A stretch of DNA of 64,000 nucleotides from the NCBI GenBank assembly GCA_002698305.1, contig NZWR01000004.1:164161-228160 (forward strand), given 5' to 3'. How positions within the stretch are numbered: the first letter of the stretch is position 1; every line of letters begins with the position of its first letter. The notes below the pieces were generated by a model, which had not been told where the DNA came from, made no database searches, and saw nothing but the letters and a program-made list of their open reading frames with translations. This document shows, piece after piece, positions 32,508 to 44,028 of the stretch. This DNA is from Candidatus Campbellbacteria bacterium. GTDB lineage: Bacteria > Patescibacteriota > Minisyncoccia > Phycocordibacterales > UBA1006. A program made the translations under genes and the position numbers.

Positions 32508-33899
32508 TTATCTAGTGAGTTTATTAGTGAAATAGTTATTCAATTCTATTATAGCTACCCGCTCTTGTTCTGCTGTATCACGATGTCGTACTGACACTGT
32601 TCCAAAGTCTGTATGACCTTCTTCCAAGGTGTCATAATCAATAACAACACAAAACGGTGTTCCAATCTCATCTTGACGACGATAGCGTTTTCCAACGTTT
32701 CCATTATCATCCCATGCCACATTTCCAAATTCTGCCTTTAACATTCCAAAGACATCATTCGCCTTTTTAACAATATGTTCTTTGTTTTTTACAAGCGGCG
32801 AAACAGCAATAGTATACGGAGCAACTGCTGGATTTAATTTAAGGTAACTGCGTGTATTTCCGTCAATTTCATCCTCAGTATATGCAGACACCAATATTGC
32901 AAGAATGGTCCGATCAAGACCTAGTGATGGTTCGATAACATGTGGAACAAAGGTTTCATTTTTGATAGGGTCGGTAAATTGAAGTTTAGTTTTTGATGCC
33001 CCTGCGTGTTTTTTCAAATCATAATCACCCCGGTACGCTAAGCCATACAATTCTTTTTGTCCAAACGGATAATCAAATTCAAAATCAATGGTTCGTTCTG
33101 AATAGTGAGCCCTGTCTTCTTCTCCAATTTCTACTTCATGGAGTTTGTTCATATCAAGACCAATCATCTCTGCCCACTCAAGCATTTCATCTTTCCAATA
33201 TTCAAACTGTGCCTTCCAATTATCTGGATGAATAAAATATTCAATTTCCATTTGCTCGAGCTCGCGCAATCGGAAAATAAAATTCCTCGGTGTAATTTCA
33301 TTACGGTATGCCTTCCCTATTTGAGCGACTCCGAACGGTAGTTTTGGATGCATTGAATCCATGATATTTTTGTAATTGATAAAAATCCCTTGGGCAGTTT
33401 CAGGACGCAAGTATGCGGTTGATGATGAATCGGATGATGAGCCTAGTTGAGTTTTAAGCATGAGGTTAAATTCACGTACACTACTTAACTGATTTCCTTC
33501 TGGAGAAACAATATTGTTATCTTTAATTGTCTGTGACATCTCTTCACTACTCATTCCTTCGGGGTCAACACCAGCTTCTTCTAGTAAATGATCAGCTCTA
33601 TAATCTTTACCTGTCGCTGTATCAGTTGTCAACGGGTCAACAAAGGTTCCTACATGCCCAGATGCTGTTAAAGCGTCCTCACCCATAACAATTGCTGAAT
33701 CTAAAAGATACGTATCTCTTCGTTCCTCTACAAATTTTTTAATAAATAAATTTTTAATATTATTTTTTAACAGTGATCCAAGGGGTCCATAATCATAGAT
33801 CCCTGAGAGCCCACCATATAATTCGCCGGCTTGAAAAATAAAACCACGAGTTTTACAAAGAGAGATAATTTTTTCCATTAATTGTTCATTATGTGTCAT
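32508..33899 (-). CDS. glyQS: Glycyl-tRNA synthetase (class II, alpha2 type)
   Basis: [34 protein letters not shown]-type motif 2 and GLDR motif 3, with a C-terminal anticodon-binding domain. Start at ATG 33899. Confidence 0.93.
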   Translation of the reverse strand: [463 protein letters not shown]

Positions 33900-33950
33900 A
33901 GCATTAGTGTACACAAAATAATTCAAAACAAAAAAGCACTCGGTGCTTTT

Positions 33951-35908: not shown

Positions 35909-36487
35909 CTAAAGCTGAGAAATCGAAAGACCGTGATTAATATGTTTAATAATTTTCGTTTTATTTTTTCGTACCTCAGCTATATAGGTATCGTCAAACG
36001 TGAGTGAATCTTTGATAAACATATAATTATCATTCCAGTAACCGAGGTGATACAACAATCGAGCCATCATAATAATTTCATATACTGGTGCTGCCTTAAC
36101 TTTTTTATCTTCTTGAATAGCAGTAAAAAGCTGCTCTACGTCGTCCCATACTTCGGCGTGTGATTCTTCACCTGCAAGCAGTCGCATCATCGTTTCTCCA
36201 TAGCGTACCATCAATGGATACCAGCCTGATTCAACATAAAAAAATGAAGAGACCAGTGGATGTATCCCAGTAAGTCGCCACATCCCCCTTCCTTGCACAA
36301 CATCAATCATAACCAATGAGTTATTATGAATATGCATACGCATTTTTGATGATTGCTTGCGAGTAGATTGACTGGAAACATAGATCAAACCAAAGCGCTC
36401 TGAAAAACAAACAAGAATTTCATTTGCTTCCTTGCGGGTAATTGTCTGAAGAATATATGCTTTTGTTTGATACACAGCGTGCGCCAT
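35909..36487 (-). CDS. recO: RecO-like DNA repair protein (tentative)
   Basis: KAYILQTITRKEANEILVCFSERFGLIYVSSQSTRKQSSK resembles the RecO N-terminal OB-fold pattern, and C-terminal ARLLYHLGYW resembles the RecO helical domain. Start at ATG 36487. Confidence 0.45.
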   Translation of the reverse strand: MAHAVYQTKAYILQTITRKEANEILVCFSERFGLIYVSSQSTRKQSSKMRMHIHNNSLVMIDVVQGRGMWRLTGIHPLVSSFFYVESGWYPLMVRYGETMMRLLAGEESHAEVWDDVEQLFTAIQEDKKVKAAPVYEIIMMARLLYHLGYWNDNYMFIKDSLTFDDTYIAEVRKNKTKIIKHINHGLSISQL

Positions 36488-36585
36488 ACTTGCCTTAGTA
36501 TAATCAGTGTTATTTTTTTGGGAAATGGATGTTTTATGATAAGGTTCTAAGTAAATCAATTTTTAATTTTTAAATTCAATAACTT

Positions 36586-36893: not shown

Positions 36894-36926
36894 AAAAAAT
36901 CGACCGATTTCATCGGTCGATTTTTT
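36894..36926. terminator. Bidirectional hairpin terminator
   Basis: AAAAAATCGACCGAT-ttc-ATCGGTCGATTTTTT overlaps the ileS stop. Confidence 0.85.
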
Positions 36927-39900
36927 ATTTTTCAATAGCAACAATAAACATAAGATGCTCTACAGTAATCTCATCTCCATCATTATGGGTGAAATTAAAC
37001 TCCTTAATTCCTGCTGTAGACTTAATCTCATCTGAGAATGCTTCTATTAACTGTTGTCCTTCTGTAGACGTTTGAACAATGAGATCAATCTCATCATGAG
37101 GCTCAAGCCCTGACTTTTTCCTCAGAGATTGGATTTGGCGCAAGAGTTCCCGCATATTACCCTCAGCTTGAAGTTCTGTGGTAATTTCAGTATCAAGTGC
37201 AAGTTCTCCGTTATGAACTTCTTTCACATTTAACTCATCCTTAATCAGCTCATAATATTGCCTATCTATTCCTTCTAAAGGAGCGGTTAGTGACTGCAAG
37301 GGTTGCCGTACTTTTATCTTTTCTTCTGAACGCAACTGAAGCCCTTCTGAAATAATATCTCGTACCGATTTCATGGTTTCAATAATTGATTGATCACTTT
37401 CTTTCATCTGGTTCCACTGAGCAAGGTGAACTGATTCTTCCATACCATCTGTTTTCAATGATTGCCAAATTTCTTCAGCAATAAATGGAACAAATGGTGC
37501 AATAATTTTTGCTGTCTCAATGAGTACGTATTGTGTTGTTCCTAAGGCCTGTTTTTTATCAGTCTCATCGTCACCTTTATATCGATCACGACTCCTGCGC
37601 ACGTACCATGTTGAGAAATCATCAACGAAATCGAAGATGGGTCGTGCCGCCCTATCAAGTTCATAACCATCAAGACCTGATCTAACTTCGTTTTCAAGTT
37701 CAGCGAGCCGAGCAATAATCCATGCATCCAAAACGTGACCTGAATCATTCCTGCCTATATGATCTACGTCCCCTGCATACATCTCATACAGTGACATAAT
37801 ATTTCTGAGGCGTCCCATAACCTTTGAAGCCACTTCACGAACACCTTTTTCAGAAAATGCGAATTCCTCGGCTCGAACGACCGGTGAATTAACCATATAT
37901 AATCGAATCGCATCCGCTCCGACAGAATCAAACATGTCATATGGATCAGGATAATTTTTCAATGATTTGGACATTTTCTTCCCATCTTCTGCCAAAATAA
38001 GTCCGTTCACGATAACATTTTCAAATGGCGTCTGGTCAAACAGCGCATTTCCAATAACCGTCATAACATAAAACCATCCGCGCGTCTGATCAAGACCCTC
38101 GGCAATAAATTGTGCTGGGAATGCCTCTTCAAACTGTTCTTTATTTTCAAATGGGTAGTGTTGTTGTGCATACGGCATTGATGCAGAGTCAAACCACACA
38201 TCAAACACATCAGGAATGCGCTCAAGAGTATCTCCATTTTCTCCAAGAATTTTTACCTCATCAATATATGGTCGGTGAATATCAATAATGAACTGTTCAT
38301 CATGTGGGAATGGCTTGAAATCTAACTGCAGTAAATGGGCATTTTGAGGTAATCGGTATTCATCCCAAAAATCATGCGCCATTTCTGGTCGTCCATAGCG
38401 ATGGTTTCCGAATTCAGCCGCACGCAAGACACCTCCATGAGATACAATAAGAATTTTTTTGTTTGAGTATGTTTCTTCAAGCTCAAACATTAATGACATA
38501 ACACGTTTATATACATCATTAATAGATTCGGCATCTTCTGAAAGCTTCAAATCAATAAAATCTTCATCGCTGGCGTAATATTCTTGATTGTGCGCGTCTT
38601 CCCATTTTTTACCTTCCCATGTGCTTCCAAGATTGGTTTCGGTAAGTCTTTGGTCAGTAATACACTGGTCATCAGAAAGACCGAGATGGTCTTTGATAAT
38701 GACTGCTGTTTCCTGGGTACGCTGCATTGGTGATACAAAAATATAATCGATATCATCTGGTATTTCAGAAAGTGCTTCCTGCACCTGAGAACGACCTTTA
38801 TCGGTTAGACTATTTGGCGTTTCAACAAGAGAATTAATAATTCCCATGATATTAGATTCTGATTCTCCATGACGAAGACCAAAATAGGTATTACCTGCAG
38901 TTTGCATCCTGCCTAGCATTTCTTCAAATGAGCTAGGAACAAAAGTTTCTTCGCCATCTTTGGATTGCCATACTGGTAACGGCGTTCCCCAAAACCGTGA
39001 TCGAGATAATGCCCAATCACGAGCTCCTTCCAGCCATTTTCCAAATCGCCCTTCCCCAACATGGTCTGGCACCCAGTTCACCTTTTGGTTTGAAGCAATC
39101 AGTTGATCTTTAATTTTTGGTACATCAACATACCATGATGTTGTTGCGTAATTCAGTAGCGGTGTATCACATCGCCAGCAATGAGGGTAACTGTGGACCA
39201 GTTTTTTCTTTGAAAATAATTTCCCGTCATGCGCGAGCCGTTTGATGATTTCAATATCAGTCGACATCAAATCATTTTTTTGTTTAACAAGCATTCCTGC
39301 AAAATCTCCGCCATCAATGGTTTCGGCAAACACATGTTTGAATGCTCCTGATTTTGCCACGTGTTGAATAAATGGCAGAGCTTTATCTTTTCCAAGCTGC
39401 ATATCATCAGAACCAAAGGCTGGTGCAATATGCACAATCCCTGTTCCATCTTCGGTGGTGACAAAATCAGCAGTTAACACTTTCCACCCGTTTTTTGAAT
39501 GTTCTACTTCCGAATCATTTTGGTAATAATCAAAAGGTGCAGTATATGCTTTTCCTTCAAGATCACTTCCTTTCATTTCTTCAGCTATTTCAAACTCTTT
39601 TCCTTCAAAAACTTTTTCTAGAAGATCTTTCCCAACAATAAATTGTTCATCGTCTGACTGAACTTTTACGTAATCAATATCAGTACCAACCGCCAACGCT
39701 ACATTTCCTGGAAGCGTCCATGGTGTTGTTGTCCATGCCAATAGAAAAGTACCTGGTTCATCTTTCAGCTCAAATTTGGCTGTGACTGAAATATCAGTGA
39801 CATCTTTGTAGCCTTGGTTCACTTCAAAATTAGCTAATGTTGTTTCACAACGTGGACACAGATGCATAGCTTTGAAGCCTTCTTTGGTCAGCCCCTTTTT

Positions 39901-40401
39901 ATGTAATTGAGCAAAGACCCACCAGATAGATTCCATGTATGAAGGATTCATTGCCATATAGGCATTATCCATGTCTACCCATCGTCCTGAACGCGGTACA
40001 TACCGTTTCCATTCTGATTCATAACGAAGCACAGAATTTCGAGCTGCATCGTTAAACTTATCAACGCCAAAATCTTCAATATCTTTTTTTGTTTCAAGAC
40101 CAAGCTCTTTTTCAATCAGGTTTTCAATTGGTAATCCATGGCAATCCCATCCCCATTTCCGTGGTACACGGTACCCCTGCATTGTTTTGTATCGTGGAAT
40201 GATATCTTTAATAGTTCCTGCAAGTAAGTGTCCGTAATGAGGTAACCCCGTCGCAAATGGAGGTCCGTCGTAAAAAACAAAATTGCCACTAGGTGATTCT
40301 TGTTCCAGTGATTTTTCAAAAATATTATTCTGTTGCCAGAAAGATAATATTGATTCTTCTGATTGAGCTGTTTTCGACTTTTTATTTTCGCTTTGATTCA
40401 T
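36925..40401 (-). CDS. ileS: Isoleucyl-tRNA synthetase carrying an inserted histidine-phosphatase domain
   Basis: HYGH (HIGH), the CP1 editing domain (WTTTPWTLPGN), KMSKS and an anticodon-binding domain. At 1158 aa it is about 200 aa longer than expected because of an internal extra domain. Confidence 0.95.
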   Translation of the reverse strand: MNQSENKKSKTAQSEESILSFWQQNNIFEKSLEQESPSGNFVFYDGPPFATGLPHYGHLLAGTIKDIIPRYKTMQGYRVPRKWGWDCHGLPIENLIEKELGLETKKDIEDFGVDKFNDAARNSVLRYESEWKRYVPRSGRWVDMDNAYMAMNPSYMESIWWVFAQLHKKGLTKEGFKAMHLCPRCETTLANFEVNQGYKDVTDISVTAKFELKDEPGTFLLAWTTTPWTLPGNVALAVGTDIDYVKVQSDDEQFIVGKDLLEKVFEGKEFEIAEEMKGSDLEGKAYTAPFDYYQNDSEVEHSKNGWKVLTADFVTTEDGTGIVHIAPAFGSDDMQLGKDKALPFIQHVAKSGAFKHVFAETIDGGDFAGMLVKQKNDLMSTDIEIIKRLAHDGKLFSKKKLVHSYPHCWRCDTPLLNYATTSWYVDVPKIKDQLIASNQKVNWVPDHVGEGRFGKWLEGARDWALSRSRFWGTPLPVWQSKDGEETFVPSSFEEMLGRMQTAGNTYFGLRHGESESNIMGIINSLVETPNSLTDKGRSQVQEALSEIPDDIDYIFVSPMQRTQETAVIIKDHLGLSDDQCITDQRLTETNLGSTWEGKKWEDAHNQEYYASDEDFIDLKLSEDAESINDVYKRVMSLMFELEETYSNKKILIVSHGGVLRAAEFGNHRYGRPEMAHDFWDEYRLPQNAHLLQLDFKPFPHDEQFIIDIHRPYIDEVKILGENGDTLERIPDVFDVWFDSASMPYAQQHYPFENKEQFEEAFPAQFIAEGLDQTRGWFYVMTVIGNALFDQTPFENVIVNGLILAEDGKKMSKSLKNYPDPYDMFDSVGADAIRLYMVNSPVVRAEEFAFSEKGVREVASKVMGRLRNIMSLYEMYAGDVDHIGRNDSGHVLDAWIIARLAELENEVRSGLDGYELDRAARPIFDFVDDFSTWYVRRSRDRYKGDDETDKKQALGTTQYVLIETAKIIAPFVPFIAEEIWQSLKTDGMEESVHLAQWNQMKESDQSIIETMKSVRDIISEGLQLRSEEKIKVRQPLQSLTAPLEGIDRQYYELIKDELNVKEVHNGELALDTEITTELQAEGNMRELLRQIQSLRKKSGLEPHDEIDLIVQTSTEGQQLIEAFSDEIKSTAGIKEFNFTHNDGDEITVEHLMFIVAIEK
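38302..38895 (-). other. Histidine phosphatase (phosphoglycerate-mutase superfamily) domain inserted in-frame in IleRS (aa ~503-700)
   Basis: The hallmarks are YFGLRHGESESN (RHG), SPMQRTQETA and VSHGGVLRA. The domain is flanked by the IleRS segments WGTPLPVW (aa 471-478) and HRPYIDE (aa 709-715). Confidence 0.75.
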
Positions 40402-40577: not shown

Positions 40578-41417
40578 TCAAGAGTGTTTTTCTACAAGGT
40601 CAATTATTTGTATTAGTGATTGCTGTTTCCCCTGATGCACAACTCGAGGTAATGCATCGATGATATCAACCACAAAGGTATCCGTAATCCTGATGCCTAT
40701 TGATTTATATTCTTCTAGCCATGTAGTATTCGTTCCAAGTGCCACCGCATAAGCTAAATAATACGTAAATAGTTCTGGCTGCTCTTGTACCGAGTTATGA
40801 AAATCAAGGCGATTTTTTTCAGCAATATTAAGGTACTCTTGAAATCCACTAATCTGGTCACGTAACCTTAATCCTTTTTCTGTATATGTCTGCTCGGCTA
40901 ATTTTATAATATACGAAGTAGCAAAACCAAAAGGAATGAATCCAATAAAATATGCATATCGATCAAACCAACTTGATACTTCGATATTTTCTAGAGTTTC
41001 GAAAAATAACTCAAAACCTGCAAAAACAAAAGCGCCTAAAATTATCAAATATAATAATATTACCCATGCAGATTTACCATGAGTAAAATACCCTCTTTCA
41101 AAAGCTAATTCAGCAATATATGGCTCCACCTTTTTAATATCTTTTTCATCTACGACAGTTTTTCTTGGGCTGGATTTATCAAATTGTATAACCCCTTTTT
41201 CATGGAGAAAAATAATTCCAGCCACCATATCCTGAACGTGTAACTTCTTATCAACAAGAAAACCACACATCATCGGATTTATTTTTTCTGGAGGTTTATA
41301 TGTTGTGACTATCGGTTGATAGGGTTTGCTTTTCACGTAACGATAAAAGAGAAATAGAGTAAATAACCCAAGGAGCCCATACCATATAAGCCACATATCT
41401 GTGAGTGATAATGTCAT
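40578..41417 (-). CDS. Membrane protein, DUF2207-like C-terminal region
   Basis: The YKPPEKINPMMCGFLVDKK...VAGIIFLHEKGVI pattern is followed by TM helices. I chose ATG 41417 because the longer ORF would run through the upstream terminator. Confidence 0.4.
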   Translation of the reverse strand: MTLSLTDMWLIWYGLLGLFTLFLFYRYVKSKPYQPIVTTYKPPEKINPMMCGFLVDKKLHVQDMVAGIIFLHEKGVIQFDKSSPRKTVVDEKDIKKVEPYIAELAFERGYFTHGKSAWVILLYLIILGAFVFAGFELFFETLENIEVSSWFDRYAYFIGFIPFGFATSYIIKLAEQTYTEKGLRLRDQISGFQEYLNIAEKNRLDFHNSVQEQPELFTYYLAYAVALGTNTTWLEEYKSIGIRITDTFVVDIIDALPRVVHQGKQQSLIQIIDLVEKHS

Positions 41418-41430
41418 AATTTGATTATAC

Positions 41431-41464
41431 CAAAAGAAAAACCGCTGTTTCACAACAGTGGTTT
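41431..41464 (-). terminator. Rho-independent terminator
   Basis: Minus strand: AAACCACTGTT-gtga-AACAGCGGTTT followed by TTCTTTT. Confidence 0.65.
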
Positions 41465-41470
41465 ATGGTT

Positions 41471-42034
41471 TTAAATTTTTTGGCCAATATATTCCAAAAG
41501 GTATTTTTCAAAATCTTTTAAAAGTTCAGCCTTAATATCAGAAACATCAGATTTTTGAGTCACAAATAAATTAGTTGTTCTCATAAAATTTGATGCTCTA
41601 TAGAGACGAAATCTATTTTCTGGAAGATTTTTCCCTATAAATACATATCCGTCTTTTTTCATTTTCATATGGAAATTGGGATCAATTTGTGCAATATTAT
41701 CAGTCATTCTGTCATAGTGCTGAAACAGACTCTTCCCATCAAGATATTTATAATATTCCAACATAATTCTTTTGAATGTATACTCATCTTCATCAGATAC
41801 TAAAGTTACTTGGTCAACTACTTGAACCCTATCTTTCTTCTGAAAACAGTTAGGATAATTTTTTTCAAGAATAGCGATAAGTTCCTGCTTCTCTAATTTA
41901 GATATTTTACCCAATTGTGCGGCAGATTTAATTTCACGTAATTCTCTACTTACCTCAAGACACGAAACTCTTTGTGCCTGAGCTGTGAAAGAAATTAAGA
42001 AAGAAACAAAAATAAAAGTTATTAAATTTTTCAT
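41471..42034 (-). CDS. Secreted hypothetical protein
   Basis: 187 aa with signal peptide MKNLITFIFVSFLISFTAQA|Q. Confidence 0.5.
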   Translation of the reverse strand: MKNLITFIFVSFLISFTAQAQRVSCLEVSRELREIKSAAQLGKISKLEKQELIAILEKNYPNCFQKKDRVQVVDQVTLVSDEDEYTFKRIMLEYYKYLDGKSLFQHYDRMTDNIAQIDPNFHMKMKKDGYVFIGKNLPENRFRLYRASNFMRTTNLFVTQKSDVSDIKAELLKDFEKYLLEYIGQKI

Positions 42035-42186: not shown

Positions 42187-42217
42187 GTAAAAACAACTGT
42201 CTTTTAGTTGTTTTTAC
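42187..42217 (-). terminator. Hairpin overlapping the argS stop codon
   Basis: GTAAAAACAACT-(7 nt)-AGTTGTTTTTAC, a 12-bp stem. Confidence 0.55.
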
Positions 42218-43929
42218 ATCTCTTCAGGTGCCTCGATACCCAAAATCCATAATGCGTTTTTAATTACCTGTGCTGTTGCGTCAGTTAATGCCAACTTGTA
42301 CGGGCTTGCTGTATCCTCAGCATCAACAATTTTGGTATTTCCGTACCAACTATTAAAGAGTTGCGCGAGCTCAGTAATATAGGTCACCACGTAGTGTGGT
42401 GCCAAATCAGCAAAGGCCTGCTGGACAACTAATGAATATCGATAGAGATATCGTTCGATATCGGTGATCTTCCAATTTTCAGGACGCTGTACACTAACAT
42501 CTATTCCTTGTTGGTGAGCCTTTCTCAGCATTGATTGCGACCGTGCGTAGGTATATTGCAGATACGGACCCGAATCTCCTTCAAACGACAGTGAGGTCTC
42601 TGGATCAAAATTGATGTTTTTTCCGGCCTGCGTTCGCAGCACAGCATATTTAATTGCGGCTATTGAAATAATATCAGCCTGTTCTTCGGATTTAATTTTT
42701 CCTTCAGCTTGTATATAAACCTCGTGATTAATTGCATCTAAAATATCAGAAACAATCGGCGTGTTCCCTAGGCGAGACGACATTTTTACACCCTTGAACT
42801 GCATGCGTCCGTGGGTCTTGTGAATTGTTTTATTTTGCCAGTCTGGATTAATTTTACCTGCTGCGGTTCCAACAACTTCAAAATATGGACCTTGCTCGGA
42901 ATCAGTTACAAAAATAGAACGGTCTGGGTTATATCGATCAAATTTAAGTTTTAATAATCCTGTATCTTTGGCTTCGTAGGTTGGGTTTCCATCTTTGTTG
43001 ATAAACACACGCGTATGGAGTGAGCTATTTTCCTCTAAATCATTTTCTGTAGGTTCAAAAATAATTGCCTCATTTGATTCAGCGTAAATGTTAGGGGTAT
43101 TTTTTTTAACCAGTTCTTTCCCAACAATTCCAGCTTCTGATTCAAAAATAAATCCATCAAATGCAGAACCCAAGCGGGCCGTCATCTGAATAAAGTATTG
43201 CAGGTTCAAATCTCGTCCTGCCTTATACGCTTCATAGGCAGGCGTATCACGATGCTCATAGATGTCCTGCGTAATTTCTCTGACGCGAGGTTCAATTTCT
43301 GGATGATCTTGAAAATACTGTGTCCCCTCAGCATAACAGCGACCAAGGAACTGCATTTTTTCTTCAATCGTTTCGAACTCGTCAATTTTTTCTATCCCAT
43401 ATTCTGATAATTGCCATACCGCTTTTCCGATACCTAATGAGACATCAGATGGATACGATATCATCGTTACATCAGCACTGCTTGTTCGGCACAAACGCGT
43501 CATCGCCTCTCCTACGGTGTTGTTCATCATGTGACCAATGTGAAAGGGTTTGAAAAGATTTGGTGATGAATGCTCAACCAGGATTGTCTTGTTTTTCCAT
43601 GATTCATTCCAACCATAGAAATTTCCTTTTTCAAGAATGTTTGACACCTCTTCAGCAAGGAAATCATCAGATAATTGAATGTTAATGAATCCTGGACCTG
43701 CAATTTCAACCGATGCTATTTCGGGAGCAGATATTTTTTCAGTAATTGCTTCTGCAAGTTCTCGGGGATTTTTTCCTTCTTTTTTCGCCAAAACCATGGC
43801 TATGTTTGTAGAAAAATCACCGTGTAATAATTCCCGCGGATGCTCGACTGTAATATCACCCTCATGGTGAATATCTAACTCTTCAAGAGATTGGTGTATA
43901 GCGCTCCTAATTTTTCCCGCAATATTCAT
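42214..43929 (-). CDS. argS: Arginyl-tRNA synthetase
   Basis: SSPNLFKPFHIGH (HIGH region), the DALR anticodon-binding domain and a C-terminal ...EEM. Start at ATG 43929 (MNIAGKIRSAI). Confidence 0.93.
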   Translation of the reverse strand: MNIAGKIRSAIHQSLEELDIHHEGDITVEHPRELLHGDFSTNIAMVLAKKEGKNPRELAEAITEKISAPEIASVEIAGPGFINIQLSDDFLAEEVSNILEKGNFYGWNESWKNKTILVEHSSPNLFKPFHIGHMMNNTVGEAMTRLCRTSSADVTMISYPSDVSLGIGKAVWQLSEYGIEKIDEFETIEEKMQFLGRCYAEGTQYFQDHPEIEPRVREITQDIYEHRDTPAYEAYKAGRDLNLQYFIQMTARLGSAFDGFIFESEAGIVGKELVKKNTPNIYAESNEAIIFEPTENDLEENSSLHTRVFINKDGNPTYEAKDTGLLKLKFDRYNPDRSIFVTDSEQGPYFEVVGTAAGKINPDWQNKTIHKTHGRMQFKGVKMSSRLGNTPIVSDILDAINHEVYIQAEGKIKSEEQADIISIAAIKYAVLRTQAGKNINFDPETSLSFEGDSGPYLQYTYARSQSMLRKAHQQGIDVSVQRPENWKITDIERYLYRYSLVVQQAFADLAPHYVVTYITELAQLFNSWYGNTKIVDAEDTASPYKLALTDATAQVIKNALWILGIEAPEEM

Positions 43930-44028
43930 ATTGTTATTGTACATGGCTCTCATAAATAGCAAAAACATACTCACTATTAATAAGCTTCATAGTTTTACAA
44001 ATTGTACAATTTATGGTAGTATGATCTT

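Follow-up and report, generated by a model that had tools for sequence, protein, structure and literature searches.

The ileS gene on contig NZWR01000004.1 of a Candidatus Campbellbacteria genome encodes an isoleucyl-tRNA synthetase (IleRS) of 1158 amino acids (aa) that carries a histidine phosphatase domain within one of its own peripheral subdomains. The gene lies in the 64,000-nucleotide (nt) stretch of DNA that was analyzed (hereafter, the window). The tie between IleRS and this phosphatase takes three forms: a coupled gene upstream of ileS, a single insert in connective peptide 3 (CP3) of the synthetase, or two to four copies at several sites. Its recurrence across the Patescibacteria, or candidate phyla radiation (CPR), argues strongly, at the level of genomes, for a functional link, one that no known pathway accounts for. 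Judging by sequence, the domain is somewhat more probably than otherwise an active phosphomonoesterase that acts on a small phosphoester and is kept in one-to-one linkage with a working IleRS.

The host synthetase

The ileS open reading frame (ORF) is uninterrupted, and its product scores 884.7 bits with TIGR00392, the equivalog model for IleRS, whose cutoff is 621.4. An initial, sequence-only reading of the window had described one continuous 1158-aa synthetase, and this description holds. The Pfam tRNA-synt_1 match is divided by a match to His_Phos_1, and its first part, on aa 18-498, corresponds to profile positions 2-267 of 414. The HIGH and KMSKS signatures and the motifs of the CP1 editing domain (WTTTPW at aa 223-228, H324 and D333) are invariant among 49 full-length homologues of 52-85% identity, and the protein is a functional-looking IleRS in which the predicted synthetic and editing sites are both intact.

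The best solved relatives are type-2, eukaryote-like enzymes (8C8U, E=1.2e-218; 1ILE, E=8e-207), and the type-1 structure 1FFY follows at 8e-96. Pfam detects a C-terminal DUF5915 in the window IleRS and no type-1 zinc-binding domain. By these sequence features, the window protein is classified as a type-2 IleRS. Two specialized families were tried and rejected, namely the mupirocin-resistance enzymes MupA/MupB (722 and 765 bits against a cutoff of 1900) and NF040702, which comprises IleRS with a GNAT domain (330 bits against 1999). An AlphaFold model of the full-length protein has a predicted local distance difference test (pLDDT) score of 86.8 and a predicted template-modeling (pTM) score of 0.76. 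Most of the insert exceeds a pLDDT of 90, and 10-residue blocks across both linkers score 77-95.

The insertion site

Insert boundaries were set from an alignment with 8C8U (IleRS2 of Priestia megaterium) and from the insert-less sister IleRS of locus L081 (homologous loci are labeled L### and proteins P####). In the 8C8U alignment, chain residues 475-483 are replaced by query residues 496-703, and the insertion point falls between the two halves of the zinc knuckle (CxxC...CxC). The distance from the WGxPxPxW motif to the DxWFDS motif is 54-80 aa in ordinary IleRS versus 227-260 aa in insert carriers, and it reaches ~430-440 aa in Peregrinibacteria loci. These alignments delimit the insert to aa ~499-703 (Table 1), and the insert is widespread in Patescibacteria.

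CP3 is a peripheral, topologically variable insertion in the Rossmann fold, and it has a zinc motif in Thermus thermophilus (PMC7191050). The host site is this peripheral CP3 zinc-knuckle subdomain and not the catalytic core proper. The sequence-only reading had placed an in-frame insertion in the IleRS catalytic core; the insertion is indeed in frame, and "catalytic core" is too strong a term because the site lies in the peripheral, variable CP3. Most insert carriers keep the zinc-knuckle cysteines. The window IleRS is without all four of them, in aa ~479-485 (QSKDGEE...) and aa ~716-725 (...ILGENGDT), and these cysteine-less CP3 flanks are at window positions 38940-38970 and 38200-38260.

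The GC content of the insert (0.38-0.39) is no different from that of the remaining gene. An intein or homing element was considered and rejected: Pfam detects only His_Phos_1 in the insert and no Hint/intein or homing-endonuclease domain, and the junctions (...EEMLGR and ...PHDEQFIID) have no conserved Cys, Ser or Thr nucleophile.

Family and predicted fold of the phosphatase domain

The His_Phos_1 profile (PF00300) matches aa 509-662 with E=1.9e-30 and 106.4 bits, against a gathering score of 21.7. When window positions 38302-38895 are translated alone, the match has E=7.7e-32, which agrees with the histidine phosphatase assignment made earlier for this segment. The motifs quoted in the sequence-only reading (WGTPLPVW, HRPYIDE, SPMQRTQETA and VSHGGVLRA) are all found where they had been placed, with codons cgt-cat-gga for the RHG motif at 38874-38866.

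An AlphaFold model of aa 490-712 has a pLDDT of 94.4 and a pTM of 0.91. Foldseek matches this model to PspA, PhoE, CobC and GpgP with E of about 1e-11 to 1e-12; the match probability is 1.00 for PspA, PhoE and CobC. The best fold neighbors (phosphoserine phosphatases of Entamoeba and Hydrogenobacter, PhoE, the riboflavin-pathway HFP, CobC, GpgP and TIGAR) have template-modeling (TM) scores of 0.62-0.72 and 23-26% identity. Structures of cofactor-dependent phosphoglycerate mutases (dPGM) rank below phosphatases, and no protein-phosphatase member of the superfamily is among the 50 best structural matches. By sequence and predicted fold, the domain groups with small PhoE/CobC/PspA-type phosphatases, not with mutases, and it has the characteristics of histidine phosphatase branch 1, including the alpha/beta fold. 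The histidine phosphatase part of the earlier assignment thus stands, and the accompanying suggestion of a mutase is unlikely to be right, as every dPGM model scores far below its cutoff and the neighbors in sequence and fold are phosphatases.

The best NCBIfam match of the domain is CobC, the alpha-ribazole-5'-phosphate phosphatase (TIGR03162), and this match is below the cutoff (76.8 bits, or 81.4 with the insert alone, against 162.9). The remaining curated families were also rejected: PspA (NF045917; 49.6-53.9 bits against 350), SixA (TIGR00249; 24.6 against 74.5), the dPGM models NF038349 (69 against 225), NF002339 (29.5 against 316) and TIGR01258 (27.6 against 81.7), and the GpmB equivalog, whose cutoff is far above the score of the domain. 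Because all equivalog cutoffs are missed, a substrate is not transferable from the curated families, and mutase function is unlikely.

The net charge of the domain is not conserved among copies, and ranges from -19, the value in the window protein, to +10. PADLOC defence profiles give only partial matches (E=0.003 and 0.0005), and the sole match among PHROGs is a family without an assigned function.

Conservation of catalytic residues

The residues R510, H511, G512, R561, E588 and H655 of the predicted active site are invariant in the 49 full-length homologues, as are T533, G536, S557, T565, E625 and R633, and N517 is conserved in 98% of them. When copies from all sources are pooled, 192 distinct embedded copies can be compared; 185 of them have exactly the Arg-His-Arg-Glu-His set, and six more differ by a Glu-to-Asp change. 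Conservation of the catalytic residues, as had been claimed from the single sequence, is therefore general. The domain as a whole diverges fast, with a mean p-distance of 0.66 versus 0.51 for the IleRS body. A conserved catalytic set within a fast-diverging domain is the pattern expected of purifying selection on catalysis.

Distribution among Patescibacteria

All 120 of the best full-length homologues (49-100% identity) have both PF00133 and PF00300. A Tara Oceans protein fragment is 100% identical over 769 aa of the window IleRS, and a search with the junction region recovers 13 fragments of other assemblies that preserve the order WGxPxPxW-RHG-HRPYID. A chimeric assembly was rejected as an explanation, because the same architecture is present in more than 100 independent assemblies and composition is even along the gene.

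With one genome per species, at least 36 of the best 80 loci carry the insert. Titles of carriers name Paceibacteria, Nomurabacteria, Yanofskybacteria, Spechtbacterales, Peregrinibacteria and "Saccharibacteria", all of which belong to the Patescibacteria/CPR, and the non-CPR titles of a few carrier metagenome-assembled genomes (MAGs) are probably wrong. L011, L016, L019 and P0085 are CPR-type IleRS in MAGs labeled Spirochaetia, Gammaproteobacteria or Crocinitomicaceae, and probably reflect binning or labeling errors.

An exhaustive HMMER search with the insert alone against 1.84 billion representatives gives 404 matches at E<=1e-10. Among the 147 best matches that were retrieved (representatives at 50% identity), 77 are embedded in IleRS. 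Hundreds of such proteins are already in public databases with precomputed Pfam domains. Their NCBI names vary, and include "class I tRNA ligase family protein", "histidine phosphatase family protein, partial" and "GNAT family N-acetyltransferase". No description of the architecture was found in the open-access papers and preprints searched, in keeping with the initial impression that it had not been described.

A phosphatase gene upstream of ileS

The search of representatives also finds complete proteins of ~190 aa that share the lead-in of the insert ("N.YF.LRHGE") and its ending. Four of these (P0258, P0318, P0308 and P0343) are encoded directly upstream of an insert-less type-2 ileS whose product has 931-955 aa. 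In L081, the gap between the phosphatase gene and ileS is 1 nt. The argS gene is upstream in L081, L083 and L084, and recO follows ileS in L083, L084 and L086. Another stand-alone phosphatase, P0254, sits behind argS. In L081, L083 and L086, the loci where the flanking motifs could be matched, CP3 of the insert-less IleRS is short (50-59 aa) and its cysteines are intact.

A scan of metagenomes, for which the four ileS-adjacent proteins served as seeds, yielded 80 loci, comprising 29 embedded and 51 stand-alone forms. In all 44 stand-alone loci with at least 600 nt of downstream sequence, ileS is downstream on the same strand. Its start is at most 400 nt away in 41 of these 44, mostly overlapping the phosphatase gene or separated from it by less than 20 nt, and is 0.9-2.3 kb away in the other three. 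Upstream, argS is present in 41 of 44 stand-alone loci with enough sequence on that side. In embedded loci from the scan, argS usually abuts ileS. None of the 80 loci has both an embedded and a stand-alone form. A hidden Markov model (HMM) built from the insert detects no separate His_Phos gene at other places in the window, nor in the sequences flanking the first 80 loci, those with one genome per species. Although the seeds bias the metagenome sample, it shows each of the two forms, embedded and ileS-adjacent, to be the nearest relative of the other, at one and the same locus. The domain is the intragenic counterpart of the phosphatase gene (~190 aa) located between argS and ileS in related Patescibacteria. 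In its stand-alone form, this gene is probably co-translated with ileS.

A subfamily of stand-alone proteins of ~198 aa also shares the lead-in motif of the insert and is placed as sister with 97% support. Its members are P0265, P0301, P0277, P0302, P0304, P0323, P0340, P0280, P0300 and P0309. In the two contexts examined, the genes do not adjoin ileS: a Ham1-like ITPase gene neighbors one of them, and ~3 kb downstream of the other is a diadenylate cyclase gene.

Repeated insertion and multiple copies

Neighbor-joining trees of the IleRS body were calculated after removal of the insert columns. A clade of 21 embedded members that includes the window protein has 100% bootstrap support. Its sister clade consists of seven insert-less IleRS with an upstream phosphatase gene (100%), and the two clades join at 80%. 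Embedded and insert-less states are interleaved elsewhere in the tree. Distances of inserts and bodies correlate only moderately (Spearman 0.40). A neighbor-joining tree of the domain has an unsupported backbone, such that only its shallow clades are robust. Fitch parsimony on the IleRS-body tree, whose backbone is weak, counts about 11 state changes.

More than one insertion event has occurred, and the order of motifs is firmer evidence of this recurrence than the trees. By motif order, His_Phos copies are found at four or more positions in IleRS (Table 1), and P0204 has four copies in one synthetase. Proteins with two to four copies are encoded at L028, L031, L032, L033 and L035, which are Peregrinibacteria/Peribacteria, and also include P0204, P0213, P0227, P0228 and P0246. 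The seemingly tandem copies of Peregrinibacteria flank the HRPYID strand and are not arranged head to tail. This repeated insertion at several IleRS sites and the equivalent gene right before ileS are the strongest lines of evidence, and neither was visible to the sequence-only reading.

Unrelated domains are found in some of these synthetases. P0191 (1325 aa) has a RimJ/RimL-type GNAT domain at aa 285-415 in CP1, between TTTPW (230) and GTGxVH (483), in addition to a His_Phos insert, and it scores 321 bits with NF040702, against 1999. P0286 (1066 aa) has a REP-associated tyrosine transposase/IS200-like domain in CP1, a His_Phos domain in CP3 and, downstream, a GNAT domain of a second type; the additional domains are at aa 326-472 and 935-1063. 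These examples suggest that such IleRS genes tolerate large in-frame inserts, some of which are apparently derived from mobile DNA.

Possible functions of the linked phosphatase

In the reading that we favor, the CP3 loop hosts a self-contained phosphomonoesterase of the PhoE/CobC/PspA type that would be catalytically competent. As judged from the fold, the first strand of the phosphatase apparently begins close to where its last strand ends, so the domain could fit into the zinc-knuckle hairpin of CP3 at its tip and leave the Rossmann fold undisturbed. By analogy with the superfamily, H511 would attack a phosphomonoester to form a phospho-histidine, R510, R561, H655 and N517 would hold the phosphate, and E588 would protonate the leaving group.

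The substrate is more likely to be a small phosphoester than tRNA, because the nearest folds are capped phosphatases of small substrates and because net charge is not conserved and is strongly negative in the window protein. This leaning is also based on the fact that a contact between CP3 and tRNA is reported neither in PMC7191050 nor in a study of yeast IleRS bound to tRNA (PMC11685878). With one to four copies per synthetase and at least four insertion sites, no fixed geometry seems to be needed. On this reading, the selected trait would be one-to-one co-expression and co-localization with IleRS, and not an exact geometry relative to the IleRS active site.

Several observations weigh against this reading. 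The IleRS of L058 is insert-less, has no phosphatase gene within 4 kb, and is nested among carriers at 99% bootstrap. Its position in the tree means that the insert was secondarily lost at least once, so the linkage is dispensable. Nor is the linkage universal: L047 and L071, which are also from Patescibacteria, lack the insert, and their 4-kb flanks contain no phosphatase gene. The stand-alone relatives P0265, P0212 and P0301 do not adjoin ileS, and the metagenome sample is biased by its ileS-adjacent seeds. Finally, every one of the several insertion sites falls within the catalytic domain or adjoins it, and such repeated insertion could equally mean that the phosphatase has to act on a ligand that IleRS binds or releases.

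The most serious alternative is that the phosphatase is a neutral passenger. Surface loops of IleRS in these bacteria would accommodate large insertions, and a neighboring gene might have been copied into ileS by illegitimate recombination and the original then lost. The embedded copy would now persist only because the cell requires a single copy of an unrelated housekeeping phosphatase, through a constructive-neutral ratchet, and the linkage would have no selective meaning. The proximity of the donor gene would favor such events, argS, ileS and recO form a conserved block of housekeeping genes in any case, and the same IleRS family hosts unrelated GNAT and REP-associated tyrosine transposase domains and shows one secondary loss. 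However, insertions are found at four or more points, several lineages retain two to four copies, and the stand-alone gene stays upstream of ileS, mostly within 20 nt or overlapping, across IleRS bodies that are ~50% identical. This persistence and recurrence exceed what a single accident would be expected to leave, and we consider a neutral origin of the linkage unlikely, if worth serious attention.

In a different alternative, the phosphatase would contribute a third catalytic activity of the synthetase on a ligand bound by IleRS, most attractively by taking a blocking phosphate or pyrophosphate off the tRNA 3' end or off a phosphorylated inhibitor. A built-in repair or counter-toxin function would then have been selected repeatedly across Patescibacteria, by fusion and by translational coupling. 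This idea is also unlikely, and we hold it with little confidence.

A specific version of this idea is the repair of tRNA ends in cis, in which the domain strips a phosphate or pyrophosphate from the 3' position, or a 2',3'-cyclic phosphate once it is opened, at the acceptor end of a tRNA bound by IleRS, restores a chargeable 3'-OH and might counter toxSAS-type or ribonuclease toxins. Pyrophosphorylation at the 3'-CCA terminus of tRNA is a real and physiologically used block of aminoacylation (PMC11559606; bioRxiv 10.1101/2021.04.30.441581), and a phosphorylated CCA end is a recognized physiological obstacle to charging (PMC11559606). In all cases the phosphatase is linked with an enzyme that binds tRNA, its stand-alone gene lies between two synthetase genes, every insertion site is in or beside the catalytic domain, and the catalytic residues are strictly kept. 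However, the domain is often strongly acidic, and its nearest folds are capped small-molecule enzymes rather than protein or RNA phosphatases with open sites. The varying copy number and the multiplicity of insertion sites speak against a defined geometry, PADLOC gives no link to defence systems, and a need restricted to tRNA-Ile is left unexplained. An RNA-end activity of this fold was not found in the open-access literature searched. We know of no histidine-phosphatase-fold enzyme that acts on RNA ends. Repair of tRNA ends by this domain is therefore doubtful at best.

The domain might alternatively process a nucleotide by-product of the synthetase, and by hydrolyzing AMP, pyrophosphate (PPi) or a 2'/3'-phosphorylated adenosine nucleotide either pull the reaction forward or feed nucleoside salvage in an organism with no nucleotide synthesis of its own. 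Patescibacteria depend on salvage, the substrate of CobC, the best NCBIfam match, is nucleotide-like, CobC and the riboflavin-pathway HFP are among the top structural matches, and proximity without fixed geometry fits the capture of a product. Against this, the CobC score of 77-81 bits is far below the cutoff of 162.9, and AMP and PPi are made by every synthetase, which leaves the specificity for IleRS unexplained. These products are normally handled by adenylate kinase and pyrophosphatase. The histidine phosphatase fold acts on phosphomonoesters, and because Ap4A-type dinucleotides are not phosphomonoesters, the Ap4A-type chemistry that had been suggested for the domain fits it poorly. The same initial reading had also suggested dephosphorylation of a tRNA end and a moonlighting enzyme stabilized through fusion, either of which may hold. 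By-product processing is thus improbable.

The superfamily includes the protein phosphatases SixA, Sts-1 and PGAM5, and HipA-like toxin kinases target other synthetases, so a phosphatase tethered to IleRS would make sense as a guard that reverses an inhibitory phosphorylation. This role is very improbable for the domain, given its SixA score of 24.6 bits versus 74.5, the lack of protein phosphatases among the top 50 structural matches, and a conserved gene neighborhood where kinase genes were not observed. Least credible is a dPGM of glycolysis fused to IleRS: the superfamily is the same, and mutases carry an HGN motif and a C-terminal tail, whereas this domain of ~200 aa has SHGG, lacks the mutase tail, scores far below the cutoff of every dPGM model and resembles phosphatase structures more than dPGM structures.

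Genomic context of the window

The order of genes in the window, argS...ileS-recO-like-DUF11/CLIPPER-like-class II synthetase, is the order found in L081 (Table 1). Two ORFs of the window, one encoding a DUF2207_C-like membrane protein and the other a protein without a Pfam match, occupy the interval between argS and ileS, which is the site of the phosphatase gene in relatives. Three synthetase genes (argS, ileS and the class II gene) are located within 12 kb. ARAGORN predicts no tRNA genes in the 64-kb window, and no Rfam family reaches its gathering score there.

Table 1. Features of ileS and its surroundings in the window, and places within IleRS at which His_Phos copies are found
Feature	Position in window, or place in IleRS	Strand	Basis or occurrence
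ileS, type-2 IleRS with inserted domain	36925..40401	-	Uninterrupted ORF, 1158 aa
IleRS N-terminal part, aa 1-498	38908..40401	-	Rossmann first half with HYGH, CP1 editing domain, CP2, CP3 N-terminal half including WGTPLPVW
HIGH signature (HYGH, aa 55-58), predicted synthetic site	40228..40239	-	H55, G57, H58 invariant
WGTPLPVW, aa 471-478, IleRS motif preceding insert	38968..38991	-	Sequence and homologue alignment
Inserted His_Phos_1 domain, aa ~499-703 (~205 aa), tip of CP3 hairpin	38293..38907	-	Pfam, 8C8U alignment, L081 IleRS, AlphaFold
RHG motif (R510, predicted nucleophile H511, G512)	38866..38874	-	Codons cgt cat gga; R and H in 192/192 distinct embedded copies
R561, predicted second phosphate-binding Arg (SPMQRTQETA, aa 557-566)	38719..38721	-	191/192 embedded copies
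E588, predicted proton donor	38638..38640	-	Glu in 186/192, Asp in 6/192 embedded copies
H655, predicted second catalytic His (VSHGGVLRA, aa 653-661)	38437..38439	-	Codon cat; 192/192 embedded copies
IleRS C-terminal part, aa 704-1158 and stop	36925..38292	-	CP3 C-terminal half, Rossmann second half with KMSKS, anticodon-binding domain, DUF5915
HRPYIDE, aa 709-715, CP3 strand right behind insert	38257..38277	-	Sequence and homologue alignment
KMSKS loop, aa 809-813	37963..37977	-	K809, M810, K812 invariant
argS	42214..43974	-	Pfam Arg_tRNA_synt_N, tRNA-synt_1d, DALR_1; synteny with L081 and L091-L170
187-aa ORF, between argS and ileS	41471..42034	-	No Pfam match
DUF2207_C-like membrane protein ORF, between argS and ileS	40578..41453	-	
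recO-like gene downstream of ileS	35909..36559	-	Weak: RecO_N E=9e-6, 26 bits, just below gathering score 27; placed as recO in L081, L083, L084, L086
Class II synthetase gene	32508..33926		
Site CP3-a	Before HRPYID		Window protein and most carriers
Site CP3-b	After HRPYID		Peregrinibacteria second copy; P0228 copy 1
Site B	Between DxWFDS and KMSKS		P0213 and P0227 copy 1; P0228 copy 2
Site C	~70 aa after KMSKS, before anticodon-binding domain		P0213, P0227, P0246 and P0291 copy 2

Related systems and significance

Outside the insert, the window protein is collinear with the type-2 IleRS 8C8U and 1ILE of T. thermophilus, with which it shares the HIGH, KMSKS and CP1 motifs and DUF5915, and most insert carriers also have the CP3 zinc knuckle of the T. 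thermophilus kind (PMC7191050). The window protein differs from these enzymes in the loss of the CP3 cysteines and in having a foreign enzyme of ~205 aa in place of ~5-9 residues at the CP3 tip.

The insert has the fold, the Arg-His-Arg-Glu-His set and approximately the size of PhoE/YhfR (1H2E), PspA (4IJ6), CobC (6E4B) and GpgP Rv2419c (4QIH), as well as their "GES..DV..R" and "SHGG" motifs. However, it is only 23-26% identical to these phosphatases and scores below every curated equivalog cutoff. It also has its own N-terminal "N.Y" lead-in to RHG and a C-terminal "P.PHN" return linker, and unlike them it is embedded in IleRS or encoded directly before it.

A curated precedent for an IleRS with an additional catalytic domain is NF040702, in which the domain is an N-acetyltransferase. 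That family differs in both its IleRS lineage and its added domain. In the mycobacterial Rv2228c type, a nucleic-acid enzyme is fused to a CobC-like histidine phosphatase, and the functional link between the two is likewise unexplained. The phosphatase half of this RNase H/CobC-like acid phosphatase family (NF005567) matches the insert with E=3e-18. However, these proteins are end-to-end fusions with a different partner, and the score is 66 versus 326 bits.

Few enzymes are as conserved as the aminoacyl-tRNA synthetases. Additional catalytic domains within these enzymes are uncommon, and in most cases they have been a sign of new biology, with editing, signaling and resistance as examples. The linkage of a phosphatase with IleRS, in both its gene and insert forms, appears to be undescribed, and it is found in a very large and mostly uncultured radiation of bacteria. 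One practical consequence concerns annotation. KEGG-type schemes could count the domain as gpmB, and pipelines that read any His_Phos match as a mutase may credit genomes with a phosphoglycerate mutase that they lack.

Action on a tRNA end, on a nucleotide or on an inhibitor would make the domain a new accessory activity in translation. Were the domain instead an unrelated housekeeping enzyme, the locus would be a clean natural example of a gene moving into its neighbor and of enzymes bolted onto essential scaffolds in reduced genomes. A synthetase with an added catalytic domain is a known type of protein; here, the evolutionary signature is unusually strong and the system is experimentally tractable.

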